Shown: positions 35,623 through 64,000, counted from the first letter of the stretch. The stretch is 64,000 nt of DNA from an uncultured Rickettsiales bacterium (GCA_964558555.1 CAZLEO010000002.1:14612-78611); one strand, 5' to 3'. Made by a program: numbers and translations. Notes: generated by a model not told the origin, from the letters alone.

Positions 35623-35712
35623 CAACCGGGAATCCGAGTCCGGGCAGCCACAGCGTGAATCTCCATCGAGCCCCGATGGCTCTATGCAGATGAACCCCGG
35701 AGGACGAACCCC

Positions 35713-39852: not shown

Positions 39853-39959
39853 GACTCCTCCGGGTGTTCCGGTGGGAGGAAGCTGCAATCGCTGTGCCAT
39901 CGAAGATCTGCTGCGTTGGGGCGGCGGATGCGGTACATCTCCGTCGAAGAGGAGGGCAC

Positions 39960-48400: not shown

Positions 48401-48606
48401 TCCTCGATCACTACATGACCATGGACCGTCGCGACGAGCGCACCGACGTCTTCGCGTCGCTGCTCCGCGAGGGCATCCACACCCTTCGCTACGAGGTCCA
48501 GGCCACCACCCCGGGCGAGTTCGTCGCCCCTCCGACGCGGGCCGAGGAGATGTACCACCCCGAGACCTTTGGGCGGAGCGCGACGGATCGGGTGATGGTG
48601 GAGTGA
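42439..48606 (+). CDS. Alpha-2-macroglobulin-family giant protein (2055 aa) with candidate thioester motif CSEQ
   Basis: Signal peptide MRRAIAIALLVLVPVGALG. Thioester-domain-like RYVPSCSEQVASRIL (compare the A2M PYGCGEQ motif). C-terminal signature GEFVAPPTRAEEMYHPETFGRS. The size and layout resemble bacterial A2M/YfhM-like proteins. Confidence 0.7.
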   Translation: MRRAIAIALLVLVPVGALGPVPVTAAPPEIREETIVTREEGVSPDEKYGEVASWYEPLGGLGMVLREIQIDPSSEAGASATVHPLSEERARELLQRADPIDTGETVPEPFAVRQGPRPRSQEAERIVLAADSHRSASVPEVERGTDVLEVVRYAPEGDAGRPFQVSIVFSQPMVALSAVEGTDADGFARIEPEMPGRWQWLGNRTLVFEPEGDFTPATTFDVTVPAGTRSASGGALAEALEFGFETAPIGVLYTTLEDVLQRLQPVVFVAFDRKVDREQILAQMRLEGGISRRLRLLTDEENDEVGDQYVDWFDERYGAGSWLAVRPAEPLEPNTGYSFVLGDGAGGAEQERFEPSSFPFRTYGPLRLTGHGCDSGWSSDDLTEECDGSDRWVAEFANPLERDQGSAISVTPADPEMTVETGWKGVEVRGVREAGVRYTVTIPPGLKDVHGQTLGEAVQLEFTFDSVRDRSTAQLFLPGTAMVVADPTAPPCYEFSSTDLESVRVRIHRSDDPAGDLTAWVEDYLATYDPEEPEHPRPGTLVSDEVHTLAGDEGERVETRIDLQPYLIDGHGQFILWFEPGRALGGFHFSSRRSVWVQVTDIGLTALESGGELLVWATGLTDGAPLQDVDLQLLPAGTSHSRTDAEGLARLEMSTNAEDQRWVLALRGPDKALLDSGDPVSLYESAKSWRASTWDGRSYRWYIDDPRGLYRPGETARVKGWIRDVEQSAAGFDPWAAAPPPTLDWRLYEPSWRAVHEPYSTVVIAEGTTAVDELGGFDIAADLPDDVSHGYAHLEVSVPGEPETSTADRRHAFEVEEYRKPRFTVGISPSHDTSMAGEELVFDIRTTLLTGGGLAGAELSGYVDASVASFRPPGHDEFRFGPWTPWWSGSVRGGFGGRYFYDGIADGRGEYRLGVEFASSNPPRPWLVGGAVYARDQARQRWTAYSDPVLVHPAELYVGLRSASSLVRAGEPFDVEALVVDLRGEVVHDADVRMTLVQQKGWSVVDGHHVMEEADVGECSLIAGAASRSCRFEVDEAGRYRVVARIADAANRPNQTDLYLWIAEADDDGGGTGRWSRLAVEGLELVPGTQDVQPGDTLELLVRSPVYPSTGLLTTSIHGIVLRTELFRMDGPTATLRIPIVEAHVPLVQIGVFVVAAEGGGSAGGPGRAEPRWPSSRKAAVNLSVPPLDRALEVSVEPDAADLQPGDETPLRVRVADSSGAPVQGAQVTLAVVDEAILQLSDHEWLDPLWFFYEPAYGHWLDYRHQFVGPYPGVWTGRDLRNTVLLATPPQGQADGPGNAEQTLRGTGRHPRYRPWDWVAGDPFSNMSRDIPPGVPRPIPSRKDFGPLALFEPAVLTDADGRAVVPLHAPGSLTRYRITALAATRDQFGLAESSITARRPLMVRPSPPRFLNVGDRCELPLLVENRTDLSLNVELAVQALNADLGNDDGYSSDPVGRELVLPPRTQVEVRIPVASRLPGQARFQVVASSDDFTDAVVFDVPVWTPAAAEEVAVYGTLEAGAVAVPVRAPPDVWTEAGGLQVDLYASRLQGLADAGHYLERYVPSCSEQVASRILAQLALGDTFGPTGDGSATQRRDRRRAIEADLFLLEGRQSHDGGFYTWHSSRRASPFVSVHVIHALVLARTAGFQIRDEVMDEADVYLGGLAANLDEGYPVDAARSIRAYALYVRHLMGDDDVDAARTLVAEADDGQLPLEAQGWLLRVLAAGGTEADTVPLERSIAASVTETAAGAHFVTSYGPGDPLLLHSDHRADAVILAALLEVGSHDDLVAKLAHELLANRSDGHWTNTLETALAVVALARYAEVHESRRPRVDAEVWLGDAYAGRHSFRTRDAPPSRIHVPMDHLANLDGGRDLVLSRKGRGPLYYRVGLDYVPRSPDLPALDRGFVLQRHYQAVDDPDDVWRDDQGAWHIRAGARVEVVVTVQVSDERHHVSIVDPLPAGLEFASDTVAGNQFLSDSADLHAPGWHAFLDHYMTMDRRDERTDVFASLLREGIHTLRYEVQATTPGEFVAPPTRAEEMYHPETFGRSATDRVMVE

Positions 48607-50248: not shown

Positions 50249-53200
50249 GTGACCGCGTGGGGGCGGACGTTCTGGGAAGTCGATCTGGTGATCGTTCGTA
50301 AGGCGATTCTGCTGCTCCTGGTCCTTGGATCGTGCTCCTCGCCTGGTCGGGCCGAGGGGAGCGACGACGAGCGGTTGCGGATCATCGTTCGCGAAGTCCA
50401 GCACCAGGCGACACAGACGCCCGAAGGGGGCGGAGCTGTCGGTCGGCCCCTCACCGCGGAGGAGATCGAGGCGCTGCTGGGGAGAGTGGAGCCCCTGCCC
50501 GCTGTTCCGACGGCCGACGCGTCGTTCACGGTGCTCGGATCGAGGGCTCGTCCGCGGGGGACCGACGCCGCCGTCGACGCGCCGTTCCCGCCGGCGAGGG
50601 GGCAGCGCGCCGAGGTCCCGCACGCCGATGGTGCGGAGGAGTCGGGCGTACTGGAGGTCCTGCGGTTCGCGCCGGACGGGGTGGTGGACCGCGAAGCGGT
50701 GGTGTCCGTCACGTTCTCGCAGCCCATGGTCGGGGTGGGGGAGCAGGCGCGAGTGGGAATCCCAACGCCTGCTCGCCTGGAGCCCGAGCTCCCGGGGACC
50801 TGGCAGTGGTTGGGGACCCGGACGCTGGTCTTCGAGCCCGCGGAGTCGCTCCCACCGGCCAGCCGGTTCGAGGTCACCGTGCCCGCCTCGACGCAGTCGA
50901 TGCGCGGCGAGGAGCTCGCCGAAGATGTGACGTTCGGCTTCTCGACGCCGCCCCCACGGCTGCGCTCCGGGTCCCCGACCGGCACCGTGCAGGATCGATC
51001 TCCGGTCGTCTTCCTCGTCTTCGATCAGGTCGTGGTCGGGTCCCAGGCCGCAGAGCGGATCGAGCTGGTGGGAGAACGGAGCCACGAGCTGCGACCGGCC
51101 ACCACGGAGGAGATCCGCCAGGAGGAGGAGCCTGACTGGTTCGACAGACGCTACGGTGCCGGCCGCTGGATCGCGCTCGAGCCCGTCGAGCCCCTGCCCC
51201 TCGCCACCGAGTTCAAGGTGACGGTGGCGCCGGTGCCCGGCGTGCCGGACGCACCCCTGCGTGAGCGAGAGGACGACTCGTTCACGTTCACCACGTTCGG
51301 GCCGCTGGAGATCGTGGCCCACCACGGGATGTACGAGTCCGAGTCGTCGGCCTGCCCGGTGGTATCACCGTGGGAGATCGTCCTGAACAACCCCCTCGAT
51401 CCCGACCGGCCGCCCACGGTCTCAGTGCGCCCGGAGCTGCCCGGACTCGAGATCACCGTCGAGGGGAACAAGCTGATCGTCGACGGTGAGCGGGACCGCG
51501 AGACGACCTACACCGTCACCGTCCACGGGGGGCTGCGCGACGTCCACGGCCAGACGCTGGGACGTTCCAGGCAGGTGGTGTTCCGGACCATCCCCTCGCG
51601 GCGGTACCTCGCCGGCCCGCGCGGCGAGCTGATCACCCTGGATCCCGCGGGCCCTGCGACCGTCCCCGTGTACACGGTCAACCACGACTCTCTGAGGGTG
51701 CGCATCCACCGCGTGGACGACGTGATGGGCGACTGGGAGACCTGGCTGCGCTTCTTTCATACGACAGCTCATCCCCGCCAGTGGGACGACCGCCCCCCAC
51801 TGCCTCCCCTGCCGGGGACGGTCCTGTTCGACGCCGAGGTGGACATCGTGGGTGCCCTGGATGATCTCGCCGAGACGCCCGTGGACCTGTCGCCGTACCT
51901 GGTCGATGGCCACGGGCAGTTCATGCTCTGGATCGAACCGACGGACCAGGATGAGTCGTCGCGGAGGATCGACGAGGTGGTCGCCTGGGTCCAGGTCACC
52001 GATCTCGGGCTGACCGCATTCAGCGACCAGGACCAGTTGTTGATCTGGGTCACCGACCTGGCGACAGGGCAGCCGCTGGAGGGCGTGCCGGTCGATCTCC
52101 TCCCCGGAGCCGAGCCGGGGGTTCCGAGCGATGCCGCGGGATGGGTCCGGATCGAGCGGCCCGGTCTGGAGAAGTTGGCCGTGGCGCGGCGCGGTACGGA
52201 CGTGGCGATCCTGCCCGAATTCGACATGTCCTGGACCGATCACTGCCACTGGCACCGGTATTACGACCGCCCCCCTCGGCAGATCTGGTTCGTGATGGAC
52301 GACCGGGGACTGTACCGACCGGGTGAGACCGTCCATCTCAAGGGATGGCTGCGGAACAGGAACCGGGAGACCGACGAGGTCACGCCGCGTATCGAGGGTC
52401 TGCCCGAGGAGGTCCAGTGGCGATTGTGGCAGCCCACGGCGTACGGGGACGACCCGCCCGCCGATCTGGCCAGAGGTGACGCCGCGGTCGGCGATCTGGG
52501 TGGCTTCTCCGTGGAGCTCGAGCTGCCGGCGGACATGGAGCCGGGAGACGCGCACCTGACGTTCTGGCCGGCGGGAGTGGAGAACCCCGGCTGGGCCGAA
52601 CGGCATGTCCACGATTTCCGCGTCGAGGCGATGCGGAATCCAGAGTTCACCGTCGCCCTGTCGGCCGGTCCCGGCCCTGTGGTGGCGGGGGAAGAGGTCG
52701 TCGTCGGTGCGACCACGTCGTACTTCAGCGGGGGCGGCCTCCCGGGCGCGTACACCTATTGGCGGCTGACCGCGCGGGGCACCCGCTATCACCCACCGGG
52801 CCACGAAGACTATGGATTCGGTTTCACCCAGCTGGGGCGCGTGGACGGACCCAGCATGGGATTCCTGGGATCGAAGGGTCTGAGTGGCCGGACCGATGCG
52901 GCGGGTGAGCACCAGATCGCCGTATCGCTGGCCGACCTCGATCCGATGGTGCCGGTCGCCGTCGAGGTGCAGGTGACCGTCGCCGACGTGAACCGCCAGC
53001 GGTGGGCCGCCACGGAGCGCCTGGTCGTGCATCCGGCGCAGCTGTACGTGGGGCTGAAGCCGGTGCGCGACGTCGTCGTCGAGGGCGAGCCCGTCGAGCT
53101 GGACGTGATCGTGGTGGACCTGGACGGAGTCCCGGTCCCCGGCATCGACGTCGAGCTGAGCATGGCCCGGCGCCAGTGGAAGATCAGCGACGGTCGCCGG

Positions 53201-56200
53201 GTGGTCTTCGAGACCGATCCGATGGAGTCGCGCACGACGTCGGAGGACGTCGCGAGGCGTGTCTCCTTCGTACCGGCGGGACCGGGAGTCCAGATCATCG
53301 AGGCCGCGGTCGTCGACGCCCACGGTCGCCGCGCGGCGACCGGAATGCGCGTCTGGGTCGCCGGTGCCTCGGTGCCGTCCGGCCTCGGTGCAGATGCCGC
53401 AGAGGTCGCGGTCACGCTGGTCCCGGAGGACGCCGAGGTCCAGCCCGGTGACGTGGCTCGCATCCACGTCACGGCTCCCTTCTACCCGGCCCACGGCGTG
53501 GTGACGGTCCGGCAGCGCAACGTGCTGACCTTCGAGACCCTCGAACTCCTGGAACCCTCGACCGTCGTGGAGTTGGATGTCCAACAGCGGCATCTGCCGC
53601 AGTTCACGGTGCAGGTGGATCTGGTCGGCTCCAGGATCGGAGACGACGGGCGGCTCCACGTGGCTCACGCGACCGGCGAGGTGACCCTGCATGTTCCGCC
53701 GAGCGATCACCGGCTGGATGTCGAGGTCGCGCCGCGTGACGAGGTCGTCGAGCCCGGCGGCCGGACAGAGATCGCCGTCGTCGTGACCGATCGGTCCGGT
53801 GAACCGGTGGCCGGGGCCGAGGTGGCGGTGTTCGTCGTGGACGAGGCGGTCCATGCGGTGAGCGGGTACGAGCTGCGACATCCCCTCGACGCCATGTACA
53901 CGCCGTCAGCGTGCTACGTGGACGACTTCCGCGGACGCGAGTACGTGGCCTCGTTCGACCAGGAGGCGGCTCGGGCCCGGGCGAGGGATCGCGAGAGCAC
54001 CCACTACTACTACCAGCTCCATCCGGAGCACGCGCATCGGTACTGCATCATCGACGATGGCAGTGACGGCGATGAAGGGGACTACTCCACGCCGGTGTCG
54101 GCCCTTCCGATCCGAGTCCGAGGCGACTTCGATCCGGTCGCCCTCTTCGTTCCAGCGGCGACCACGGACGAGCAGGGACGGGTACGCGTCCCGGTCGAAC
54201 TCCCCGACTCGCTCACTCGATATCGGGTGATGGCCGTCGTCGCCACCGTCGAGGACTTCGGCGCCGGGGAGGACTCGATCACGGCGCGTCTGCCACTGAT
54301 GGTCCGACCGTCTCCACCACGCTTCGTCGCTGCGGTCGATCGTTTCGAGTTGCCCGTCGTACTCCACAACCACACCGGCGATCCCCTCGACGTGGCGCTG
54401 GCCGTGCACGGGGACAACGCCGTCTTCGCCGAGGCCCTCGACCGGCTCGAACCCGGCGCGGTCGCAGGAGACAACACCTCGGGTGTAGCCCTCACCGTCC
54501 CCCCCCACGATCGGATGGAGGTCCGATTCCCCGCCGCGGCCGTTCAGACGGGGACCGCGCGTTTCCAGGCCGTGGCTGCGGCAGGCGTGTACGCGGACGC
54601 GTCCACCTTCGAGCTGCCGGTGAAGGCCCCGCTGCCCCTCGAGTCCTACGCGACCTACGGCACCCTCGACGGGGGCTCGCTCGCGTATGATCTGGGTCTC
54701 CCTGCCGACGCCTGGGAAGGATTCGGCGGGCTGGAGATCGACCTCTCACCCTCGCGCCAGGGCGAGCTGGTGGATGCCAGGCGCTACCTGCGGCGCTATC
54801 CCTTCGCCTGCAGCGAGCAGATCGCCAGTCGCGTGCTCGCCCTGGCCGGGCCACGACACCCGGCGGCTCGACAGGGACCGGGGACTTCTGCGAGAGGGCT
54901 GCGCAGGGCCCTCGACCAGGACCTGGCCGAGATCGTGGCGCGCCATAACGACGACGGCGGCTGGCCCCTGTGGGCCAGGGGCCACGATTCCCTCCCCTTC
55001 CTCTCGGTCCACGTGACCCACGCCCTGGTCCGCGCCCGGGAGCGCGGCCACGACGTCCCGGACGCGACGCTCGTTCAGGCCACCGCCTACCTGGCGAACA
55101 TCGACGGCCACCTCCCCGGCACCCTGTCGCCGCGGACTCGATGGACCATCCGCGCGTACGCGCTGAACGTACGCTTCCGCCACGACGGCACCGGCACTGA
55201 TGCGGCTGCCGCGCTGCTCGCAGAGGTGGGGGTGGAGGACCTCCCCGAAGAGGCGATGGGGTGGCTGCTGCCGGTGCTGGCGGGGGGTGGGGAGGCCGAC
55301 GCTGCGGCACGTATCCGGCAACAGCTGCGCGACACCGTCACCGAGACCGCCGACACCGCGCACTTCGACTCGGGCTATGGACGAGACGGATTCCGTGTGT
55401 TCCACGGCAGCTTCCGGGCCGACGCCGTCATCCTGGAGTCCCTGATCGACGTCGATCCGGACAGCGACCTGATCCCCAAGCTCGCCAGGGGCCTGCTGGC
55501 CAGCCGCGTGGACGGCCGCTGGCTCAACACCCAGGACACCGGCTTCGTCACGCGGGCCCTGACCCGGTACTTCGAGACCCACCAGGGTCATCGGCCGAGG
55601 TTCGTCACGCGTGTGTGGATCGGGGATCGCTTCGCGGGCAAGCGTGCGTTCCGTCCGGCCCGCCTCGAGTCAGCCCGTATCCGGGTCCCCCTGGCGACCC
55701 TCGCCGAGACACCCGACGGCCAGCAGCTGACCCTGGCGATGAAGGGCAAGGGACGGCTCCACTACCGGATCGGGATCGAGTTCGCCCCGCTCGATCCCGG
55801 TCAGCCTCCGCTGGATCGAGGATTCGGCATCGAGCGCGAGTACCGCGCCCTCGACGATCCCGAGGACGTCAGGCAGGGCGCGGACGGCACGTGGCACATC
55901 CGGGCGGGAGCCCGCGTCCAGGTACGCCTCGTCCTGGATTCGAGCTCGCACCACCACCACGTGGCCCTGGTCGATCCGCTGCCCGCGGGCCTGGAGCCGG
56001 TCAACCTCGCGCTCGAGGGCACGGGTCGCGCCGACCGATCCAACGAGTGGTGGTGGCGCTACTGGTACGACCACGAGGCCATGCACGACGACCGCGTCGA
56101 GGTCTTCGCGGAGCAACTGTGGGAGGGCGCGGTCGTCTACACCTACATCGCCGAGGCCACGACTCCGGGGATCTTCGTCGCGCCAGCAGCTCGGGCCGAG

Positions 56201-56260
56201 GAGATGTACCGGCCGGAGATTTTCGGCCGCACCGGGACCGGGTGGGTGGTGATCGAGTAG
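50249..56260 (+). CDS. Alpha-2-macroglobulin-family giant protein, paralog 2 (~2000 aa), lipoprotein, with candidate CSEQ thioester motif
   Basis: Collinear similarity to 42439..48606 (VLEVLRFAPDG...SVTFSQPMVGV...PGTWQWLGTRTLVFEP; RYPFACSEQIASRVL; C-terminus GIFVAPAARAEEMYRPEIFGRT). Signal plus lipobox LLLLVLGSC. The true start may be a downstream GTG. Confidence 0.7.
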   Translation: MTAWGRTFWEVDLVIVRKAILLLLVLGSCSSPGRAEGSDDERLRIIVREVQHQATQTPEGGGAVGRPLTAEEIEALLGRVEPLPAVPTADASFTVLGSRARPRGTDAAVDAPFPPARGQRAEVPHADGAEESGVLEVLRFAPDGVVDREAVVSVTFSQPMVGVGEQARVGIPTPARLEPELPGTWQWLGTRTLVFEPAESLPPASRFEVTVPASTQSMRGEELAEDVTFGFSTPPPRLRSGSPTGTVQDRSPVVFLVFDQVVVGSQAAERIELVGERSHELRPATTEEIRQEEEPDWFDRRYGAGRWIALEPVEPLPLATEFKVTVAPVPGVPDAPLREREDDSFTFTTFGPLEIVAHHGMYESESSACPVVSPWEIVLNNPLDPDRPPTVSVRPELPGLEITVEGNKLIVDGERDRETTYTVTVHGGLRDVHGQTLGRSRQVVFRTIPSRRYLAGPRGELITLDPAGPATVPVYTVNHDSLRVRIHRVDDVMGDWETWLRFFHTTAHPRQWDDRPPLPPLPGTVLFDAEVDIVGALDDLAETPVDLSPYLVDGHGQFMLWIEPTDQDESSRRIDEVVAWVQVTDLGLTAFSDQDQLLIWVTDLATGQPLEGVPVDLLPGAEPGVPSDAAGWVRIERPGLEKLAVARRGTDVAILPEFDMSWTDHCHWHRYYDRPPRQIWFVMDDRGLYRPGETVHLKGWLRNRNRETDEVTPRIEGLPEEVQWRLWQPTAYGDDPPADLARGDAAVGDLGGFSVELELPADMEPGDAHLTFWPAGVENPGWAERHVHDFRVEAMRNPEFTVALSAGPGPVVAGEEVVVGATTSYFSGGGLPGAYTYWRLTARGTRYHPPGHEDYGFGFTQLGRVDGPSMGFLGSKGLSGRTDAAGEHQIAVSLADLDPMVPVAVEVQVTVADVNRQRWAATERLVVHPAQLYVGLKPVRDVVVEGEPVELDVIVVDLDGVPVPGIDVELSMARRQWKISDGRRVVFETDPMESRTTSEDVARRVSFVPAGPGVQIIEAAVVDAHGRRAATGMRVWVAGASVPSGLGADAAEVAVTLVPEDAEVQPGDVARIHVTAPFYPAHGVVTVRQRNVLTFETLELLEPSTVVELDVQQRHLPQFTVQVDLVGSRIGDDGRLHVAHATGEVTLHVPPSDHRLDVEVAPRDEVVEPGGRTEIAVVVTDRSGEPVAGAEVAVFVVDEAVHAVSGYELRHPLDAMYTPSACYVDDFRGREYVASFDQEAARARARDRESTHYYYQLHPEHAHRYCIIDDGSDGDEGDYSTPVSALPIRVRGDFDPVALFVPAATTDEQGRVRVPVELPDSLTRYRVMAVVATVEDFGAGEDSITARLPLMVRPSPPRFVAAVDRFELPVVLHNHTGDPLDVALAVHGDNAVFAEALDRLEPGAVAGDNTSGVALTVPPHDRMEVRFPAAAVQTGTARFQAVAAAGVYADASTFELPVKAPLPLESYATYGTLDGGSLAYDLGLPADAWEGFGGLEIDLSPSRQGELVDARRYLRRYPFACSEQIASRVLALAGPRHPAARQGPGTSARGLRRALDQDLAEIVARHNDDGGWPLWARGHDSLPFLSVHVTHALVRARERGHDVPDATLVQATAYLANIDGHLPGTLSPRTRWTIRAYALNVRFRHDGTGTDAAAALLAEVGVEDLPEEAMGWLLPVLAGGGEADAAARIRQQLRDTVTETADTAHFDSGYGRDGFRVFHGSFRADAVILESLIDVDPDSDLIPKLARGLLASRVDGRWLNTQDTGFVTRALTRYFETHQGHRPRFVTRVWIGDRFAGKRAFRPARLESARIRVPLATLAETPDGQQLTLAMKGKGRLHYRIGIEFAPLDPGQPPLDRGFGIEREYRALDDPEDVRQGADGTWHIRAGARVQVRLVLDSSSHHHHVALVDPLPAGLEPVNLALEGTGRADRSNEWWWRYWYDHEAMHDDRVEVFAEQLWEGAVVYTYIAEATTPGIFVAPAARAEEMYRPEIFGRTGTGWVVIE

Positions 56261-56319
56261 TCGATCCCGGCCGACGACCCGGCTTGACCGCCGCTGTGTC
56301 ACCTCCCACGATCCACTCC

Positions 56320-56868
56320 ATGCAGTACGAGCTCGCCACCCGCGTTGGATCCGGGGTCGTCCGCCACACCCTCGACGGCGACTACATGACCGTGGAGTAC
56401 GAAAAGACGGGCCGGCGCGACGTGATCCCGCTGGACGACGTCACGCAGCTGCACCTGCTGCGCGAGTTCGCGGGGATCTACCGGATGAAGGTCTCGCGGC
56501 GGCGCGGAAGGACGCTGTCCATCCCGTCGAGGCATTTCGAGGCGGTTGGGCAGTTCGAGGACCGGGGTCCGCAGTACGCCGAGTTCGTGCGTACGCTCCA
56601 CGCCGAGTGCCACCGCGTCACGCCGCGCACCAGGTTCGTGGCGGGGTCGACGTTCTTGTTCTGGCTGGGCTGGTTCTTCGTCGTCTGCGGCGCTGCGCTG
56701 GGGCTCCTCCTGTTGCAGGACATGGCGGCCGCGCCCTGGGCTCCGCCGCTGAAGCTCGTATGGATCCTGCCGATGATGGCCGTGGTGGGGGCGTCGCTCA
56801 TCGTGCAGGGGAGGCGGGTGCGGTACGAGCACCACTCGATCCCTGCGAAGTTCCTGCCGGGTGGCTGA
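56320..56868 (+). CDS. Hypothetical membrane protein
   Basis: 182 aa with two C-terminal TM helices. No recognised domain. Confidence 0.45.
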   Translation: MQYELATRVGSGVVRHTLDGDYMTVEYEKTGRRDVIPLDDVTQLHLLREFAGIYRMKVSRRRGRTLSIPSRHFEAVGQFEDRGPQYAEFVRTLHAECHRVTPRTRFVAGSTFLFWLGWFFVVCGAALGLLLLQDMAAAPWAPPLKLVWILPMMAVVGASLIVQGRRVRYEHHSIPAKFLPGG

Positions 56869-56903
56869 CCGCTGCGAGCCTGATCTCGCAGAACCTCGAA
56901 GGT

Positions 56904-57554
56904 TCAGAATCGCCCGACAACGGCCACGCCGGCCTCCGTGGAGGTCGCCCACGGGACGAACACGGGAACGCTCGCGGTCGCCGTCGCGGGCACCTGCTTG
57001 CTCGACGCAGCGGTGATGATCCCCGGGATCAGCATCCCCAGCGCCACGCCAGCGTGGGCGGTGATCATGATCCAGGGGAGCGGCGCGAGGGCCGGGCCCG
57101 GGCCCATGCCGTAGCTGTCGTCGGGATCCGAACTCTCCGACGTGATGGCGAGCTGTATGACCAGGTCGACCAGGGCCACCAGTCCGCTGTAGGCCGCCCC
57201 CTCGAACAGGCCGATGGAGAGGGCCCGCAGGTCTGACGCGGGGGTGCCGTCCGAGAGGAGGCGACGGAAGCCGTCGGCGGTGATCGGCGCGAACGGGATG
57301 CTCACGCCGTGAACGATGGGCCGCCCGACGCTGTACAGGTAGAAGTCCGTTCGTCCCACCGCGACCATCGTCAGGCCGACACCCTGCACCACCAGTCCCG
57401 AGACGACCATCGCGCGCCCCTGGCGCACCGTCTTGTCGCGGTCGGGGTCGGCATCGGCGGCGAACGCCGGGACCACGGATGCCACGGCCATGGCCAGTGC
57501 GATCGCGATGCTCCACGCGTCCGCGGTCCTTGTCCTCGTGCGGGCGCGGCTCAT
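56904..57554 (-). CDS. Hypothetical secreted or membrane protein, last gene of the kor-rubredoxin operon
   Basis: Start MSRARTRTRTADAWSIAIALAMAVASVVPAFAAD with signal peptide and RBS GGAGGAG. Hydrophobic C-terminal half. Confidence 0.5.
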   Translation of the reverse strand: MSRARTRTRTADAWSIAIALAMAVASVVPAFAADADPDRDKTVRQGRAMVVSGLVVQGVGLTMVAVGRTDFYLYSVGRPIVHGVSIPFAPITADGFRRLLSDGTPASDLRALSIGLFEGAAYSGLVALVDLVIQLAITSESSDPDDSYGMGPGPALAPLPWIMITAHAGVALGMLIPGIITAASSKQVPATATASVPVFVPWATSTEAGVAVVGRF

Positions 57555-57910
57555 GGGATCTCCTCCAGCACAACGGTCACGTCCTCGGTGATCACGTGGC
57601 AGAAGTCCCGGTCGACGAACACGTCGGTGAGCACCGCCTCGAACCCGTCCGCGCTGACCTCGATGTCGATGGCGCCGCTGGCCTCCCAGCCGCAGTCCCA
57701 CCGGTCCGAGTGGTCGCTGAACTCGCAGTCCTGGAATTCGGGATCGTCGCTCGATGCGACGAGGTAGCGGACTGCCGCGTCGATCACCACGTCGCCGTGG
57801 ACGTCGACCACGGTCACATGGACGGATTCAACCTCCTCTTCGGTACAGGTGCAGCCGATCCAGACGGCCATGGCGGCGGCGAGCGCCGCGAAAACGCGCA
57901 GATTCGTCAC
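57551..57910 (-). CDS. Small lipoprotein of unknown function
   Basis: GTG start with RBS GGAGGAA. Signal plus lipobox AMAVWIGCTC. 119 aa. Confidence 0.45.
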   Translation of the reverse strand: MTNLRVFAALAAAMAVWIGCTCTEEEVESVHVTVVDVHGDVVIDAAVRYLVASSDDPEFQDCEFSDHSDRWDCGWEASGAIDIEVSADGFEAVLTDVFVDRDFCHVITEDVTVVLEEIP

Positions 57911-57978
57911 GGTTCCTCCTTCGGCCCCTGCCTGGAGGATGTGAGCGAAGCAGGATTCGTGACGATCCGTCGTGCGGC

Positions 57979-58923
57979 TCAGTGCCCGAAGACCAGCTTG
58001 CCCCCCAGCATGCCCAGGCGGGCGGTGAGGGCGTTGCCCACCAGCAGCAGGCCGGTGAAGGCGCCGATCTCGACGACACCGGTGGGGGCCTCGGTCCAGC
58101 CGGCCCAGAAGCGGAAGCCGACGGTGAGGGCGGCGACGACCATCAGCACCCACGACCACAGCTTCTTCTCGGGGAAGATGCCGGTGGTGGTGGAGCCGAA
58201 GCGGTGCCTGGCGTCGGACCAGCCGGAGTAGAAGGTGACCGGCGACACGACCATGGCGATGAGCGCGAGGTAGGTGGTGGTGCGCTCGAGGGAGGCCTCG
58301 CCGGTGATCAGGAAGGCGATCCAGAACAGCAGGGCCAGGGGCAGCGCGCCGTTGGGGAAGTGGGCCGAGACCGGATGCAGGTGGAGGCGCTCGATGAGGC
58401 CGGAGAAGCCCTTGTGGTGGTGGTCGGGGCTCTCGGTCTCGGGCTCGAAGTAGTCCTTGCCCTTGCCGCAGACCGGGCAGACGTCGGGGGGTTCGGGGCC
58501 GTCGTGGATGTAGTTGCAGACCACGCAGCGCCAGCGGTCGGCTTTCACCGGCTTCTTGGGCTCCGGCGTGGGCTCGGCGGCCTTGGCCTTCGGTCGGGCC
58601 GGCGGAGGGTGCTCCTGGCCCTGTTCGTGGGGCACGAACGCGGTCCAGGGTTTGCGGCAGACCGGGCACTCGTCGGGGGGGGAGTCGCCGTGGTGGATGT
58701 AGCGGCAGACGGTGCAGTACCACTGTCGCTCGGTGCTGACGTCCTCGGTCGCCTCGCCCTCGGTGGGCTCCTCGTCCTCGGTGGGCTCGTCGTCCTGAGT
58801 GGGCTCCTCGTCCTCTTCCTCGACCGGCTCGAAGAACTCCTTGCCCTTCTTGCACACGGGGCAGATGTCGGGGGGCTCGTCGCCTTCGTGGACGTACTTG
58901 CAGATCGTGCAGATCCACTTCAT
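57979..58923 (-). CDS. Triple-rubredoxin fusion protein with C-terminal 4-TM membrane domain
   Basis: Three Fe(Cys)4 rubredoxin modules: WICTICKYVH...DICPVCKKGK, WYCTVCRYIH...DECPVCRKPW and WRCVVCNYIH...DVCPVCGKGK. They are separated by acidic or Pro/Lys linkers. A hydrophobic domain with HLHPVSAHFP follows. Confidence 0.75.
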   Translation of the reverse strand: MKWICTICKYVHEGDEPPDICPVCKKGKEFFEPVEEEDEEPTQDDEPTEDEEPTEGEATEDVSTERQWYCTVCRYIHHGDSPPDECPVCRKPWTAFVPHEQGQEHPPPARPKAKAAEPTPEPKKPVKADRWRCVVCNYIHDGPEPPDVCPVCGKGKDYFEPETESPDHHHKGFSGLIERLHLHPVSAHFPNGALPLALLFWIAFLITGEASLERTTTYLALIAMVVSPVTFYSGWSDARHRFGSTTTGIFPEKKLWSWVLMVVAALTVGFRFWAGWTEAPTGVVEIGAFTGLLLVGNALTARLGMLGGKLVFGH

Positions 58924-58933
58924 CGGACCGCTC

Positions 58934-59806
58934 CTAGATGAACTCGGACTTGATGGCCTCGTACGCCTCGTCGGGAAGCGGCCGCAGGCCGCGCTCGACC
59001 AGCGGGCCGTCGGCCAGGGCGGGGAGCTGGGACTCGTAGCTCGGCGCCTCGGCGTCGCGGTAGAGCACGCCCACGGGGATGCGATCGCCCCACTCGAGGG
59101 CCTTGCCCATGGCCGCGCCGAGGTCGGAGGTGTCGTAGCCCTCCTCCTCGTCGAGCTTGTACACGCGCTGGCGGTACCAGGGGTAGCTGAGCGCAGGGTT
59201 GAAGGTGACGCAGACCTGCAGGGTGTCGATCAGGGCGTAGCCCGGGTGGTCCATGGCCTGGCGGATCAGATCGGCGAAGTGGGCCATGTCCAGGGGGAAG
59301 GCGCGGGCCACGAAGGTGGCGCCGGCGGCCAGGGCGACGCTGAGGGGGTTGATGGGCTGGTCGACGGCGCCCTCGGGGGAGGTCTTGGAGACGAACCCGG
59401 CGGGGCTGGTGGGGGAGTACTGGCCCTTGGTCAGGCCGTACACGCGGTTGTTCTGGACCAGGTCCACCAGGCCGATGTTGCGGCGGGCGGCGTGGATGAA
59501 GTGGTTGCCGCCCATGCCGTAGCCGTCGCCGTCGCCGTGCACGACCAGGACCTTCATGCCGTGGTTGGCCAGGCGGACACCGGTGGCCACGGCCACGGCG
59601 CGGCCGTGCAGGGTGTGGAACCCGTTGACCTTCATGTAGTGGGGCATCTTCGAGCCGCAGCCGATGCCGGAGATGAGCTGGACCTGGTGGGGGGCCACGT
59701 CGGCCTCGGCCAGCGCGCGCTTGAGCGCGGCGAGGATGCCGAAGTTGCCGCAACCGGGACACCAGGTGGGGTCCATGGACCCCTGGTAGTCGTTGGCGGT
59801 GACCAT
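58934..59806 (-). CDS. korB: 2-oxoacid:ferredoxin oxidoreductase beta subunit (TPP-binding, KorB-like)
   Basis: WCPGCGNFGIL...GIGCGSKMPHY...VVHGDGDGYGMGGNHFIHAARRN carries the TPP-binding GDG motif and Cys ligands. RBS GAGGAGG. Confidence 0.85.
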   Translation of the reverse strand: MVTANDYQGSMDPTWCPGCGNFGILAALKRALAEADVAPHQVQLISGIGCGSKMPHYMKVNGFHTLHGRAVAVATGVRLANHGMKVLVVHGDGDGYGMGGNHFIHAARRNIGLVDLVQNNRVYGLTKGQYSPTSPAGFVSKTSPEGAVDQPINPLSVALAAGATFVARAFPLDMAHFADLIRQAMDHPGYALIDTLQVCVTFNPALSYPWYRQRVYKLDEEEGYDTSDLGAAMGKALEWGDRIPVGVLYRDAEAPSYESQLPALADGPLVERGLRPLPDEAYEAIKSEFI

Positions 59807-59808
59807 GT

Positions 59809-61557
59809 TCACACCTCCTCGGAGAGCCGGCCGACGATGAAGTCGGCGGACAGGGGACGGCCGTCCCACTTGAGGACCTCGCCCTCGAACGTGCAGCCGA
59901 GCTCGCTGCGCAGGACGGACGCCAGCTGGCCCGTGGAGTTGCCCTCCACGGCGACCAGCCGCCCGGCCTTGACCAGCTCGTCCAGCGCGGCGTCCCGGTC
60001 CAGGGGCCACAGGTCGGCGAACTGCAGCACGTTGACCGATCCGCCGCCGGCGTTGATCTGCGCGGCGGCCTCGCGGGCGGGGCCGGTGGTGCCGCCCCAG
60101 CACACCAGGGTCGTGTCGGCGTCCTCGGGGCCGTGCCAGACGGGCGCTCTCATCTCTGCCGCGGCTGCGGCCAGCTTGCTCATGCGCTTGTACTGCTGCG
60201 TGGTGCGGGTCTCGGCGTCCTCGGTGAGGGCGCCGGCGGTGGTGTGCTCGTTGCCGGTGATCGTGAACACGGCCCTGGGGTGGCCGGGCAGGGCCCGCGG
60301 CGACACGCCGGTGTTCGTCACCTCGTAGCGCACGTAGGGCACATCCAGCTCGTCCAGGGCCGCCGCGTCCAGCAGGGAGCCGCGGTCGATGTGGACCTTC
60401 GACACGTCGAACACGTCGGTCTCCACGGTGCGGATGGACGTGGCGAGGTAGTGCTCGGTGAGCACGATGACCGGGCACTGATACTGCTCGGCGAGGTTGA
60501 ACGCCCGCCAGCCCGCCTCGAAGCACTCCTCGATGGTGCCGGGGGCGAGCAGGATGCGCGGGAACTCCCCGTGGCCCGCGTGCAGGGCGAACTTCAGGTC
60601 TGCCTGCTCGGTGCGGGTGGCCAGGCCGGTGGCCGGGCCCGGGCGCTGGGCCAGGACGATCACCGCCGGGGTCTCGCTCATCCCGGCCAGGCTGAGCGCC
60701 TCGACCATCAGCGAGAAGCCGCCGCCCGACGTGGAGGTCATGGCGCGTGCGCCCATGTGGGCCGCGCCGACGACCATGTTCATCGCCGAGATCTCGTCCT
60801 CGGTGTGCTTGACCACGACGCCGTGGCTGGCGCCCTTGCCCGCGAGCCACTCGAAGATGGAGGTGCCCGGGGTCATGGGGTAGGCCGCGAGGAAGCTGCA
60901 GCCCCCGACCAGGGCGCCGTAGGCCAGGGCGTGGTTGCCGTCGATCAACATCCGCTCGGGCGGGTCGTCCTGGGCGCGCAGCCGGTACTCGAACCCCTCG
61001 GCGTGGTGCTCGGCGCCGTACTCGTAGGCGGCCCTGGCCACGGCGCGGTTGGCCTCGATGACCTTGTCGCCCTTCTTCTTGAACTGCCGCGCGAGGGTGT
61101 CCAGCAGCGGCTCGATGGGATAGCGGAACACCGCCGCGGCCACGGCCACGGACGCGGCCCCGGCCATGACGGGCCTGCCGCCGATCTCCTTGGCGATCTT
61201 GATCAGCGGCGCGGGCATCGCCCGGACGCCGCGCGACTCCAGGGCCGCGACGTCCACCTCGAGGTCCTCGTCGTAGATCACGCCGCCACCGGGCACGATC
61301 TGGTCGGCGAAGCGACCCACGGCCTCGGGGGTCTGCGCGAGCAGCAGGTGGATGTGGTGGCCGTGCGCGTGCACCGGGTCCTCGTCCACGTCCATGCGGT
61401 AGAAGTTGAGGCCGCCGCGGATGCGGGACTCGTAGTCCTTGCGGCCGAACACGTGCAGGCCGCCCCGCGCCAGGGTGCGGGCCAGCAGCGCGCCGTTGGA
61501 CTCGACCCCCTGGCCGGCCTGGCCGGCGAACTTGATGGCGATTCTCTGTTCCGTCAT
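59809..61557 (-). CDS. korA: 2-oxoacid:ferredoxin oxidoreductase alpha subunit (KorA-like)
   Basis: 582-aa OFOR alpha/gamma fusion typical of two-subunit KorAB enzymes (AYPMTPGTSIFEWLA, GGGFSLMVEALSLAGMSETPAVIVLAQRPGPATG). Confidence 0.85.
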   Translation of the reverse strand: MTEQRIAIKFAGQAGQGVESNGALLARTLARGGLHVFGRKDYESRIRGGLNFYRMDVDEDPVHAHGHHIHLLLAQTPEAVGRFADQIVPGGGVIYDEDLEVDVAALESRGVRAMPAPLIKIAKEIGGRPVMAGAASVAVAAAVFRYPIEPLLDTLARQFKKKGDKVIEANRAVARAAYEYGAEHHAEGFEYRLRAQDDPPERMLIDGNHALAYGALVGGCSFLAAYPMTPGTSIFEWLAGKGASHGVVVKHTEDEISAMNMVVGAAHMGARAMTSTSGGGFSLMVEALSLAGMSETPAVIVLAQRPGPATGLATRTEQADLKFALHAGHGEFPRILLAPGTIEECFEAGWRAFNLAEQYQCPVIVLTEHYLATSIRTVETDVFDVSKVHIDRGSLLDAAALDELDVPYVRYEVTNTGVSPRALPGHPRAVFTITGNEHTTAGALTEDAETRTTQQYKRMSKLAAAAAEMRAPVWHGPEDADTTLVCWGGTTGPAREAAAQINAGGGSVNVLQFADLWPLDRDAALDELVKAGRLVAVEGNSTGQLASVLRSELGCTFEGEVLKWDGRPLSADFIVGRLSEEV

Positions 61558-61597
61558 CGAATACCTCGATTCTTCGCCTCGACGCCGGGCAGTCTAT

Positions 61598-61612
61598 GCA
61601 GATTCGGTGCCA
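61598..61612 (-). promoter_or_regulatory. Candidate sigma-54 promoter upstream of korA
   Basis: The minus strand reads TGGCACCGAATCTGC: a perfect -24 TGGCAC, and CTGC at -12 (1 mismatch to TTGC), with correct GG-N10-GC spacing. It lies ~40 nt upstream of the korA start. Confidence 0.5.
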
Positions 61613-61815
61613 TTGTCTGCAGACCGGTCGCCTCGGCTGGCGTGCACCGGAGGGAGCCTCCCGCGGAGAGCCGGTGGGACAGGTGGCGGTGTCTCCTGAG
61701 ACATCACACCGTTCGCGAGACAGGCCGACGAGGCGGGTCGTCGCGGCTCGAAGATCGCGTCAAGGGCTCGACGTGCAACGCCCGCCAGGGGTTCTGGCGA
61801 CCCTCTCGCCCCCGT

Positions 61816-61831
61816 TGGTACGGACCTTGCT
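61816..61831 (+). promoter_or_regulatory. Candidate sigma-54 promoter upstream of the erythrin-like gene pair
   Basis: TGGTACGGACCTTGCT against TGGCAC-N5-TTGCW: 1 mismatch, perfect -12, correct spacing. About 60 nt upstream of ATG 61894. Confidence 0.5.
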
Positions 61832-61893
61832 ATTCTCTCGTCTCGTCCCCACGGCGGACGGTCGCTGCGGGAGATCGACAAGAGGGAGCAGCG

Positions 61894-62388
61894 ATGGCTC
61901 AGAGCTTCAACATCGACGAGATCCTGCAGATGGCCACCCAGATCGAGCGCAACGGCGGCAAGTTCTACCGCCTGGCCGCCGATCTGACCGACGACGAGCC
62001 GGTCAGGCAGACCCTGACCATGCTCGCGCAGATGGAGGACGACCACGAGGTCACCTTCGAGTCCATGCGCGAGTCGGGCGACTTCTCCGGCTTCGACGAG
62101 TTCGATCTCGACGGCCAGGCGGGCGCCTACCTGCAGGCGGTCGCGGACGGGTACGTCTTCGACGTCAACGAGGACCCGGCCGACGTGCTGGCGGGCAACC
62201 CCGACGCCCTGCGCATCCTGCGCATCGCCATCGGCCGGGAGAAGGACGCGGTCACGCTGTTCGCCGGCCTCAAGGAGGCCATGCCCAGCACCTGGGGACA
62301 GGACAAGGTCGACGCCATCATCCGCGAGGAGCTGTCCCACATCGCCATCCTCAGCAACGAGATCCGCCAATTGAAGGAGCGCAACTGA
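61894..62388 (+). CDS. Ferritin-like/rubrerythrin-family di-iron four-helix-bundle protein (erythrin-like, no rubredoxin domain)
   Basis: Di-iron ligand pattern E(IERNGGKFY)...ExxH(MEDDHE)...E(GREKDAV)...ExxH(EELSHI). RBS GAGGGAG. Confidence 0.65.
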   Translation: MAQSFNIDEILQMATQIERNGGKFYRLAADLTDDEPVRQTLTMLAQMEDDHEVTFESMRESGDFSGFDEFDLDGQAGAYLQAVADGYVFDVNEDPADVLAGNPDALRILRIAIGREKDAVTLFAGLKEAMPSTWGQDKVDAIIREELSHIAILSNEIRQLKERN

Positions 62389-62915
62389 TGTCCGATACGC
62401 CTACCTTTGGTCAGATCGTGGCCACCGCCCTGGAGATGGAGGGCAAGGGTCGAAGGTTCTATGCAGAGCAGCTCACCAAGTGCGGCAACGCCTTGACCAA
62501 GGAGCTGTTCCAGCGGCTGCACGACGACGAGATCGAGCACGTGCGCCGCATCAAGAACATCGTGGCGTCCCTGGACGCGGGTGTGAGCCTCGACGGCGTC
62601 GAGTTCGGCGATCCCGACGAGGACGACCTCGGTTCGTTCTTCCGCACCATGGCCCGCAAGCACGGCGCCAGCGTGGACGACCAGACCGTGGACGTGGAGG
62701 CGGTGGAGATCGGCATCGACTTCGAGCAGCGGGCGGTGACCTTCTACAAGGACCGCCTGGAGATCTCCACGGATCCGGCCGAGCGCAGATTCCTCCAGGC
62801 CATGGTCACCGAGGAGCGGGGCCACCACGCCACGCTGCGCGATCTGAAGTTCTACCTCACCGATCCCGAGGGGTACTTCGCCGAGCTCGAGCGCGCCGGC
62901 CTCGACGGCGCGTGA
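62388..62915 (+). CDS. Ferritin-like/rubrerythrin-family di-iron protein, paralog 2
   Basis: E(LEMEGKGRRFY)...ExxH(DEIEHV)...E(DFEQRAV)...ExxH(EERGHH). Start overlaps the upstream stop (TGATG). Confidence 0.65.
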   Translation: MSDTPTFGQIVATALEMEGKGRRFYAEQLTKCGNALTKELFQRLHDDEIEHVRRIKNIVASLDAGVSLDGVEFGDPDEDDLGSFFRTMARKHGASVDDQTVDVEAVEIGIDFEQRAVTFYKDRLEISTDPAERRFLQAMVTEERGHHATLRDLKFYLTDPEGYFAELERAGLDGA

Positions 62916-62925
62916 GCGATTCCCG

Positions 62926-63993
62926 TCAGGAACGCTCGGGGACCCTCGCCTCGGTCGGAAGGATGGGCATGATCTTGATGCCCACCACGAACAGCAACCC
63001 GACGAAACCGAAGACGCCCAGCGCCTGGAGGAACTCCAGGAAGGTGGGCGTGTAGGTGGCGACCCCTTCCACGGCCGTGTAGGCGGCGAACTCCGCGGGT
63101 GTGGGCACGATCTCCATGCCGGGGAACAGGTCGGCGGGGTGGATCAGGCCCGGGATCACGATGACGTAGCGCTCGCACAGCACGCCGAACACCACCATGG
63201 AGCCGGCGACGACCACGCCTCGCACCGTCTTGCCGTAGCGGCTGAAGAGGATGAACAGCGGCGTGACGAATCCGACCAGGAACATCCCGCCCCAGAACAA
63301 GAAGCCGTGGAAGCCCTCGAACAGGTAGTGAATCGCGGCCTCCCGGGACCCGATCATGTAGAAGCGATGGAGGTTCTCGATCAGGATGAGGTACAGCACC
63401 ACGATGATGAACACGCTCATCAGCCGGCCCAGCCAGATCACCAGCTGGTCGTCCAGGTGCCGCTTCGTCAGCCTGAACAGCACCACGAACAGCACGATGA
63501 TGAACCCCGCGCCGGACGCCAGGGCCGCGGCCACGAAGCTCGGCGGCAGCAGCGGCGACGTGTACAGCTCCCGGGGTACGAAGCCGAAGATCGCGGCCGT
63601 GCCGCTGTGCACCATGATGGCCCAGCCCACGACCACGTAGGCCGACACCTTGGTCAGCCGCGGCATCTCCCGGAGCAGGGCGAACAGGTAGACGACGCAC
63701 AGGAAGATGTGCCCACCGTACAGTCCGGGATTGATGGAGAACATCGACAGCAGGTTGAAGTGCACGAAGGGCTCGATGAAGAACCGATCGAGCCGCCCCT
63801 GATCCGTGGTGATGGACAGCAGCCCCGCGATCAGGAAGAGCATCGCCATGAAGGCGGCGAGCCGGGCGAAGGGCTTGTAGTCGAGCTTGCCGAAGACCCC
63901 GTAGAGGCCCGACACGATCAGCGATCCTGCCGACAGCCCGATGTAGTAGATCGCCAGGATGATCTGCAGCCCCCACGCCGCGCGGTTGGTCAT
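62926..63993 (-). CDS. NrfD/PsrC-family polytopic membrane protein
   Basis: Start MTNRAAWGLQIIL at the window edge. About 9 TM helices with NrfD-like topology. Partner subunits presumably lie beyond the window. Confidence 0.6.
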   Translation of the reverse strand: MTNRAAWGLQIILAIYYIGLSAGSLIVSGLYGVFGKLDYKPFARLAAFMAMLFLIAGLLSITTDQGRLDRFFIEPFVHFNLLSMFSINPGLYGGHIFLCVVYLFALLREMPRLTKVSAYVVVGWAIMVHSGTAAIFGFVPRELYTSPLLPPSFVAAALASGAGFIIVLFVVLFRLTKRHLDDQLVIWLGRLMSVFIIVVLYLILIENLHRFYMIGSREAAIHYLFEGFHGFLFWGGMFLVGFVTPLFILFSRYGKTVRGVVVAGSMVVFGVLCERYVIVIPGLIHPADLFPGMEIVPTPAEFAAYTAVEGVATYTPTFLEFLQALGVFGFVGLLFVVGIKIMPILPTEARVPERS

Positions 63994-64000
63994 CCCCGTG

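Follow-up and report, generated by a model that had tools for sequence, protein, structure and literature searches.

A candidate single-enhancer sigma-54 divergon of an oxygen/peroxide-stress regulon that may feed 2-oxoacid electrons through tethered rubredoxins to di-iron proteins

A gene module at positions 56904 to 62915 of a 64-kb stretch of bacterial DNA (GCA_964558555.1 CAZLEO010000002.1:14612-78611; the whole stretch is called the window here) was analyzed computationally. Two gene sets diverge from a spacer of exactly 336 bp (61558 to 61893). On the minus strand, korA and korB encode a two-subunit 2-oxoacid:acceptor oxidoreductase (KorAB) and are followed by a gene for a membrane protein with three rubredoxin (Rd) domains and a DUF2231 domain; on the plus strand, eryA and eryB encode two Rd-less di-iron proteins. 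An earlier reading of this DNA (the original prediction) had placed the genes in this order and at these coordinates around a 336-bp divergent region, and the gene and domain calls agreed with it. Coordinates of all features are collected in Table 1.

Table 1. Features of the divergent module, of other parts of the window, and of related loci (locus handles are given for coordinates outside the window)
Feature	Coordinates	Strand	Details
216-aa signal-peptide/hydrophobic protein	56904-57554	-	No family match
119-aa putative lipoprotein	57551-57910	-	No family match
Tri-rubredoxin-DUF2231 protein, 314 aa	57979-58923	-	Three PF21349 rubredoxin-like domains and PF09990 (DUF2231)
korB, thiamine pyrophosphate (TPP)/[4Fe-4S] beta subunit	58934-59806	-	PF02775 (TPP_enzyme_C) and PF12367 (PFO_beta_C)
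korA, alpha subunit (fused gamma-alpha) of the two-subunit 2-oxoacid:acceptor oxidoreductase	59809-61557	-	PF01558 (POR), PF01855 (POR_N), and PF02780 (Transketolase_C)
korA sigma-54 promoter (predicted)	61597-61612	-	TGGCACCGAATCTGCA; -12 GC ~42 nt upstream of ATG, then GAGG ribosome-binding site
Candidate shared enhancer (upstream activating sequence [UAS])	61674-61722		Palindrome TGTCTCCTGAGACA at 61690-61703; third half-site GTGGGACA at 61674-61681; GAGACA at 61717-61722
eryA-eryB sigma-54 promoter (predicted)	61816-61831	+	TGGTACGGACCTTGCT; -12 GC ~64 nt upstream of ATG
EryA, 164-aa rubredoxin-less di-iron four-helix-bundle protein	61894-62388	+	PF02915, 26.9 bits
EryB, 175-aa paralogous di-iron protein	62388-62915	+	PF02915, 44.9 bits
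NtrC-type enhancer-binding protein (EBP; REC-AAA+ with GAFTGA-HTH_8) and adjacent histidine kinase	19753-22237	+	Sole EBP in the window
DVU0298-family HEAT-repeat protein gene	39301-39852	-	54% identity to L008 9482-10168, E = 2e-67; NF045662, 122 bits
HEAT gene sigma-54 promoter (predicted)	39884-39899	-	TGGCACAGCGATTGCA, perfect consensus; third strict match in the window
Peroxiredoxin genes of relatives with sigma-54 promoters	L091 14571-15227; L011 14022-14680; L092 15014-15541		
GAGACA repeats near the HEAT start codon	L014 3560-3618; L009 6207-6260; L011 780-830; L013 3690-3746		
EryA(-EryB)-sdhCAB	L092 10001-13810; L091 10001-14419; L011 8001-12358; L005 1109-5031		

Homolog look-up with the tri-rubredoxin protein and EryA yielded eight distinct loci of one clade: the window, L011, L005/L012, L013, L008/L014, L009, L091, and L092. 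In all eight, korA was kept and EryA was divergent from korA-korB-Rd(n)-DUF2231, while the remaining gene content varied. EryB was encoded in six clade loci including the window (orthologs in L008, L009, L011, L013, and L091), and a third paralog, EryC, was adjacent in two clade loci and a few kilobases off in two more. Five relatives carried a canonical nonheme ferritin and a HEAT-repeat protein downstream of the Rd protein; L005 and L092 further encoded rubrerythrin and an NAD(P)H reductase fused to Rd, with superoxide reductase (SOR) as one more gene in L092. Homologs of ferritin, EryC, rubrerythrin, SOR, flavodiiron protein (FDP), and Hrb were searched for in the 64-kb window and were absent; of these downstream and added genes, only the HEAT gene was found there.

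The two well-formed −24/−12 elements that the original prediction had described in the spacer held up under counting. Each differs from TGGCAC-N5-TTGCW by one mismatch. Over the 64 kb, the strict pattern TGGYAC-N5-YTGCW matched three times where 0.19 matches were expected; none of 100 shuffles reached three, and two of the three matches sit in the 336-bp spacer. No sigma-70-like promoter was found by scanning positions 56200 to 63100, nor was any convincing terminator. An Rfam scan of positions 56000 to 64000 (E ≤ 1) gave no match; thus, no riboswitch or small RNA explains the long spacer.

The spacers of the clade were only 37 to 73% identical, yet both −24/−12 elements and a central palindrome were conserved in all eight. 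The korA promoter was kept as TGGCA(C/T)-N-TGC in every locus; for the eryA promoter, seven loci had (T/C)GGTACG-N-CCTTGC, and L013 had TGGCACGGAGCGTGCA. The palindrome, a 14-bp TGTCYC-N2-GAGACA with a third half-site, TGTCYCA, 8 to 9 bp further on, was likewise present in all eight loci, once per locus and in this spacer every time. Its center lies ~86 bp from the −24 element of korA and ~121 bp from that of eryA, within the usual range of enhancers. The arrangement looks like a single-enhancer divergon, in which one EBP would serve two divergent sigma-54 promoters; the sites are conserved, and binding and activation are what their conservation suggests. The enhancer-dependent co-control envisaged earlier is supported by both elements and by a candidate shared palindromic UAS, all conserved in eight diverged loci.

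Because the window encodes an activator with the GAFTGA motif, the organism uses sigma-54. This EBP is encoded 40 kb from the module and has no demonstrable link to the enhancer. Two UAS types were compared with the palindrome and rejected: the NifA type (TGT-N10-ACA), since the spacing of the palindrome is N8, and the PexR type (CACCG-n6-CGGTG), which had no match anywhere in the window. PexR of Myxococcus xanthus is a bacterial EBP that activates the sigma-54 promoters of ahpC and katB via dyad-symmetric UASs in short divergent spacers (PMC12754779). As in the PexR regulon, peroxiredoxin genes of the relatives studied here have sigma-54 promoters; unlike it, the UAS is TGTCYC-N2-GAGACA, no EBP gene is adjacent, and the target genes are others. 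The absence of PexR-type sites therefore argues for a different activator specificity. Sigma-54/EBP control of oxidative-stress genes, only recently shown for PexR, would thereby extend to a second, different enhancer motif, and the motif could serve to find its regulator and the remaining regulon in metagenome-assembled genomes (MAGs).

The same boxes recurred at stress genes of the relatives. The peroxiredoxin genes of L091 and L011 have the predicted sigma-54 promoter TGGCACGCCCCTTGCT with four TGTCTC/GAGACA hexamers upstream, and the peroxiredoxin gene of L092 and the nickel superoxide dismutase (Ni-SOD) gene of L008/L014 have sigma-54-like promoters. Ni-SOD is also among the genes found beside the module in relatives. 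In the eight loci, TGTCTC/GAGACA hexamers occurred at 11 per kb in regulatory regions versus 0.28 per kb elsewhere, a comparison that is indicative only, as the regions were picked after the motif had been seen. The third strict sigma-54 match of the window precedes the HEAT gene, and an equivalent promoter precedes its ortholog in L008/L014, L009, L011, L013, and L091. In five relatives the HEAT gene, with this promoter, directly follows korAB-Rd-DUF2231-ferritin as the last gene of the arm; the window copy, 22 kb away, belongs to this gene set as well but has been displaced. HEAT gene promoters had no TGTCTC boxes upstream, and four of the six loci had GAGACA repeats just downstream of them, around the start codon. 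A full-text literature search for DVU0298 returned nothing functional.

EryA relatives were found in 241 genomes (one genome per species scanned) of Planctomycetota, Verrucomicrobiota, Desulfobacterota, Zixibacteria, and other groups. A distant set of 76 loci outside the clade (L015 to L090; mean length, 12 kb) was scanned by tblastn. SOR was encoded in 55 of these, ferritin in 48, FDP in 41, rubrerythrin in 37, an Hrb-like flavin reductase in 29, peroxiredoxin in 24, catalase in 14, Ni-SOD in 12, and KorA in 7. The original prediction had expected relatives of the di-iron proteins to co-occur with rubredoxin-encoding genes, and EryA orthologs did so in 49 of the 76 loci (a rubredoxin domain), immediately downstream in about 25: a flavin-reductase-Rd fusion directly follows EryA in 23 to 26. 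In 36, ferritin is encoded immediately upstream of EryA, and this pair is conserved across phyla. By Pfam, one island (L067) reads rubrerythrin, Ni-SOD, peroxiredoxin, FDP, SOR, ferritin, EryA', catalase, EryA, flavin-reductase/rubredoxin, and glucose-6-phosphate dehydrogenase; another (L036) reads thioredoxin, peroxiredoxin, multiheme cytochrome, SOR, ferritin, EryA, Fe-SOD, KorA, and KorB. Several MAGs, of Verrucomicrobiota and of other groups, have KorAB after EryA (L016, L032, L036, L044, L054, and L075). Sigma-54 control of EryA in other phyla was considered and rejected, as none of the 76 distant loci had a −24/−12 match before ferritin-EryA.

Because no distant locus has a sigma-54 promoter at that position, sigma-54 control is specific to the clade; EryA is a general member of stress islands, and in some lineages KorAB is found in them too. 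Since the boxes of the divergent spacer also precede peroxiredoxin sigma-54 promoters, and since EryA sits in islands of defense against reactive oxygen species (ROS), the assignment of the module to an oxygen/peroxide-stress regulon is well supported. The oxidative-stress role suggested by the original prediction is strengthened by both lines of evidence, the second in the form of islands with SOR, ferritin, FDP, rubrerythrin, and catalase in 76 distant genomes. We hold the regulatory and stress-regulon layer of the model with high confidence.

The enzymatic layer begins with KorAB. KorA matched TIGR03710 at 612.9 bits (cut-off, 482.75) and KorB matched TIGR02177 at 357.2 bits (cut-off, 261.9), which identifies the pair as a two-subunit 2-oxoacid:acceptor oxidoreductase. 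The name Kor is generic here, and on 2-oxoglutarate specificity all equivalog models scored below their cut-offs. As regards the substrate, sdhCAB and fumarase near the module in relatives only hint at the tricarboxylic acid (TCA) cycle. The korA and korB genes overlap by 4 bp. KorB has four cysteines in total (16, 19, 50, and 199), i.e., those of one [4Fe-4S] cluster; a domain search found no Fer4 or ferredoxin-like delta domain in KorA or KorB, and the operon contains no ferredoxin gene. With only four cysteines in KorB and no ferredoxin-like domain, KorAB needs an external acceptor, and the tethered rubredoxin is the sole redox carrier encoded in the operon. The Rd gene begins 10 bp past korB in the window and overlaps korB in L008 and L009; a 10-bp gap or an overlap was found in every clade locus.

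The membrane protein has the three rubredoxin domains that had been predicted for it, and these are of the rubrerythrin type. All three have the CxxC-x12-CxxC spacing and match the C-terminal domain of rubrerythrin (NF045767, positions 158 to 192) better than classical rubredoxin, which would make them equivalents, by sequence, of the domain through which electrons enter rubrerythrin. Two linkers, one acidic and one rich in Pro/Lys, connect them; both are disordered in the AlphaFold2 model (predicted local distance difference test [pLDDT] score of 84, mostly >90 in the membrane domain). Relatives carry one to four Rd copies per protein. The DUF2231 match (residues 182 to 314) scored 31.5 bits against a gathering score of 26.4. 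The membrane domain is confidently modeled as a four-helix bundle of four transmembrane (TM) helices, and the alignment revealed the invariant motifs HxHPxxxHxPNG and GxxGGKL. By the positive-inside rule, the N terminus, the Lys/Arg-rich loop 2, and the C terminus would be cytoplasmic, and this topology would therefore place the rubredoxins beside KorAB and the Ery proteins. The DUF2231 domain may link rubredoxin to the membrane.

Searches added little on the function of DUF2231. Foldseek of the tri-Rd-DUF2231 model against the PDB returned only generic helical bundles (all E > 0.03), the domain alone as a query returned only close relatives and no new fusion partners, and a full-text literature search gave one incidental mention and nothing functional. 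Outside the clade, the surroundings of Rd-DUF2231 genes gave no information, save for one cytochrome-rich neighborhood (L095 860-8947), in which a lone 2-Rd-DUF2231 gene lies between a NapC/NirT-multiheme-FeS-NrfD cluster and a multiheme/cytochrome b fusion. This neighborhood hints at a role in membrane electron transfer. Rd-DUF2231 fusions form about 90 clusters, an uncharacterized family that is now given a context.

EryA and EryB both scored above the PF02915 gathering score of 22.8. Their genes overlap by 1 bp, EryB is translationally coupled to EryA, and the two proteins probably act together. Six di-iron ligands (E18, E48, H51, E116, E146, and H149) were invariant across nine aligned Ery paralogs and in 41 homologs. 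Neither protein has a Cys motif, and hence neither has a rubredoxin-like CxxC-x12-CxxC domain on the same polypeptide. The E/ExxH/E/ExxH ligands and the absence of an Rd domain were therefore as originally predicted. The E/ExxH/E/ExxH set is the generic one seen in ferritin and bacterioferritin; the seven-ligand site of rubrerythrin includes a further ExxE, on helix C (E94/E97 in Desulfovibrio vulgaris rubrerythrin). By sequence and fold, the Ery proteins best match the COG1633/TM1526-PF1190 ferritin-like group; the match of EryB to PF1190 (2FZF) was weak. EryB and EryC (window 62388-62915 and L008 3447-4561) share a C-terminal tail, YLTDPxxWF...LDGA/LEGG, that EryA lacks.

On this basis we tentatively propose, at somewhat less than an even chance, that the module is a single-enhancer sigma-54 divergon of an oxygen/peroxide-stress regulon that feeds 2-oxoacid electrons via tethered Rd domains to the Ery proteins. 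An oxygen- or peroxide-responsive EBP would bind TGTCYC-N2-GAGACA and the extra half-sites and turn on both promoters. KorAB, with TPP and its [4Fe-4S] cluster, would oxidize a 2-oxoacid with coenzyme A and reduce the Rd domains, which, held in the cytoplasm on flexible tethers by the four-TM DUF2231 anchor, would in turn reduce the di-iron sites of EryA and EryB; these would reduce H2O2 or O2 to water. The net result would be a rubrerythrin-like peroxidase or oxidase assembled in trans and fueled by a 2-oxoacid instead of NAD(P)H. Rd is proposed as the acceptor of KorAB because of the korB-Rd coupling, the four-Cys KorB, the lack of an operon ferredoxin, and the rubrerythrin-type Rd domains. 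Rubredoxin is the acceptor of pyruvate:ferredoxin oxidoreductase in Chlorobaculum tepidum, a precedent for electron flow from a 2-oxoacid:ferredoxin oxidoreductase (OFOR) to rubredoxin, and rubredoxins serve di-iron proteins in Hrb-FprA of Moorella and in the bacterioferritin-rubredoxin-2 pair of D. desulfuricans. In these precedents the rubredoxins are soluble and single-domain, whereas here a membrane DUF2231 fusion is combined with an OFOR operon.

Several points weigh against the proposed wiring. Every step of the route from KorAB through Rd and Ery to H2O2 or O2 is inferred, and we regard the route itself as plausible but, taken alone, slightly more doubtful than a coin toss would make it. 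The Ery proteins lack the helix-C ExxE: the corresponding segments read GREKDA (EryA), DFEQRA (EryB), and DLEEKT (EryC), compared with GEHYE/GENHE in the true rubrerythrins of L067 and L005. These segments were taken straight from the helix-C sequences, as a MAFFT alignment of Ery proteins with true rubrerythrins misaligned the C-terminal half. The best sequence and fold matches were TM1526, PF1190, the iron-storing DpsL, and mini-bacterioferritins, with symerythrin ranking 37th and nigerythrin 48th. The earlier labels "rubrerythrin-type" for the ligands and "erythrin-like" for the proteins are therefore not specifically supported. Archaeoferritin of Pyrococcus furiosus, a relative of PF1190, stores iron (PMC3401498). 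In the distant islands, rubredoxin could equally serve FDP or SOR rather than EryA; as both of these also use rubredoxin, the EryA-rubredoxin association is nonspecific. Rd-DUF2231 proteins stand alone in other lineages, where neither KorAB nor Ery accompanies them; the membrane protein therefore has a role independent of these two, and its conserved His-rich motif would be unnecessary if the domain were a mere anchor. EryA(-EryB) runs straight into sdhCAB in four relatives, which points to central metabolism, and no EBP gene was found within 8 to 10 kb of the module in the flanks of ten relatives.

The stand-alone occurrence and His-rich motif of the membrane protein and the sdhCAB linkage would fit a different reading, in which KorAB-Rd3-DUF2231 is a respiratory-type 2-oxoacid:quinone or transmembrane oxidoreductase that passes electrons into the membrane through the DUF2231 bundle, with the divergon adapting the TCA cycle to micro-oxic conditions and EryA and EryB only protecting or accompanying it. 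The stand-alone fusions would make Rd and the membrane domain a unit, one such fusion lies among NapC/NirT-type, multiheme, NrfD, and cytochrome b genes, and the TM motifs HxHPxxxHxPNG and GGKL are invariant. The Ery arm is directly continuous with sdhCAB in L092, L091, L011, and L005 (in L092 with a 4-bp overlap and fumarase 5 kb away), so that two TCA-cycle enzymes flank the sigma-54 enhancer. No heme- or quinone-binding relative of the TM domain emerged from the Foldseek search of the PDB, however, no invariant His lies on helices other than the motif helix, and this reading explains neither the enhancer shared with peroxiredoxin genes nor why EryA and KorAB lie in ROS islands in other phyla. 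We consider this explanation possible but fairly unlikely. Its fuller form would be a hitherto unknown membrane-bound 2-oxoacid dehydrogenase whose Rd electrons enter the His-rich four-TM module and then reach the quinone pool or cross the membrane; one peroxide/oxygen-sensing sigma-54 enhancer would pair this complex with protective di-iron proteins and with succinate dehydrogenase; as one combined claim it is a little less likely again. If true, it would be a new respiratory entry point that avoids low-potential ferredoxin when oxygen appears.

The Ery proteins themselves could be read in two other ways. They might be ferroxidase or iron-storing mini-ferritins of the archaeoferritin/DpsL kind that catch iron from damaged Fe-S enzymes, with KorAB-reduced rubredoxin serving iron release or repair and not peroxide reduction. 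Their fold neighbors fit this, as does the six-ligand E/ExxH/E/ExxH site with E-x6-Y, which is the bacterioferritin/archaeoferritin pattern; 36 of the 76 distant loci have canonical ferritin directly upstream of EryA, and five relatives have it within the korAB-Rd arm, and the bacterioferritin of D. desulfuricans is co-transcribed with rubredoxin-2, its redox partner. Yet with a true ferritin already there, a second store, let alone a third, would seem superfluous, TM1526, the best EryA match, is not known to form cages, and the neighbors are mostly rubredoxin-using, ROS-reducing enzymes; we think iron sequestration improbable. Alternatively, the two arms might be co-regulated without being wired together, the tethered Rd feeding other Rd-dependent enzymes (SOR, rubrerythrin, or FDP) and Ery having its own donor. 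SOR, rubrerythrin, and the Rd-fused reductase lie within a few kilobases in relatives, a flavin-reductase-Rd gene of its own follows EryA in distant islands, and KorAB occurs in islands with SOR but without Rd-DUF2231. Against this, no other Rd-dependent enzyme is encoded in the 64-kb window, and the one constant across the eight loci is that Ery is paired divergently with korAB-Rd; uncoupled arms are unlikely, if slightly less so than iron sequestration. That the −24/−12 matches arose by chance and that the genes are merely neighbors is disfavored and very improbable: the loose pattern TGG-N9-TGC is common in this GC-rich window (106 matches), but the excess of strict matches, the lack of a sigma-70-like promoter in the region, and the persistence of both sites and the palindrome as conserved islands in eight diverged spacers all speak against it.

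The proposed electron route was compared with known systems. The chain of rubrerythrin and NAD(P)H:rubredoxin oxidoreductase-rubredoxin in Desulfovibrio, Pyrococcus, and Clostridium shares with it the di-iron bundle, the CxxC-x12-CxxC entry domain, and the oxidative-stress setting. Here, in contrast, three Rd copies reside on a membrane-anchored protein of their own, the helix-C ExxE is missing from the di-iron proteins, the electrons are proposed to come from a 2-oxoacid through KorAB and not from NAD(P)H, and control is by sigma-54. The module thus lacks two defining features of rubrerythrin, the helix-C ExxE and the fused Rd domain. Ferriperoxin, sulerythrin, and symerythrin ("erythrins") are likewise Rd-less di-iron proteins and are peroxidases with an external protein donor; for ferriperoxin the donor is NADPH plus FNR (PMC3317640). 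The nearest relatives of Ery are the COG1633 proteins TM1526 (1VJX) and PF1190 (2FZF) and the P. furiosus archaeoferritin PF1196, which have the same E-x6-Y/ExxH pattern; TM1526 and PF1190 are without assigned function, and archaeoferritin is an iron-storing, monomer-to-oligomer system. We know of none of these three working with rubredoxin or an OFOR.

In the searchable literature we found no description of the Rd-DUF2231 family, of the OFOR-rubredoxin operon, of the shared enhancer, or of the EryA branch. A context can now be assigned to three uncharacterized families: the Rd-DUF2231 fusions, the EryA branch of COG1633, and the DVU0298-type HEAT proteins. If the wiring is as proposed, anaerobes or microaerophiles of oxygen-minimum zones would drive peroxide or oxygen reduction from a 2-oxoacid via a tethered poly-rubredoxin, bypassing NAD(P)H and free ferredoxin.

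Downstream of the Rd gene, the original prediction had extended the operon to the lipoprotein and secreted-protein genes; membership stood for korA-korB-Rd and failed for these two. No terminator was found in the 68-bp gap before the lipoprotein gene, which in the window is probably co-transcribed with the operon. Homologs of the lipoprotein (56%) and of the 216-aa protein (66%) were found only in L011, the closest relative, where the lipoprotein gene is not adjacent to the operon and an oppositely oriented RCC1-repeat gene separates both from it. Because the two genes occur only in the window and L011 and are split from the operon in the latter, they are probably passengers and not conserved members of the module.

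The GC content of the window is 69%. The same stretch was found in a marine metagenome contig (JGI 3300009008 Ga0115649_1002010) and recurs in similar ENA and JGI samples; the host is an uncultured high-GC bacterium of oxygen-minimum-zone water. The closest MAGs or bins (the L011 to L014 records) were deposited as "uncultured Rickettsiales bacterium," a label that looks unreliable, even implausible, given the 69% GC, the Ser/Thr kinase(s), the sigma-54 activator(s), and the Hdr/Dsr-like sulfur-respiration genes. Homologs of the Rd-DUF2231 protein carry the names Deltaproteobacteria/Desulfobacterales. A polysulfide/thiosulfate-reductase-like cluster (molybdopterin subunit, NrfD, and sulfur-transport protein), followed by a DUF302 gene, lies at 29693 to 36117 on the plus strand. 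An NrfD gene converges on EryB and is the final gene of an Hdr/Dsr-like cluster that runs off the end of the window. Together, the cluster at 29693 to 36117 and the Hdr/Dsr-like operon beyond 62926 suggest an anaerobic, sulfur-respiring lifestyle. Between these, two giant bacterial alpha-2-macroglobulin-like genes stand in tandem on the plus strand (42439 to 48606 and 50249 to 56260; 2,055 and 2,003 aa, respectively), with a CarboxypepD_reg-domain gene on the opposite strand between them.

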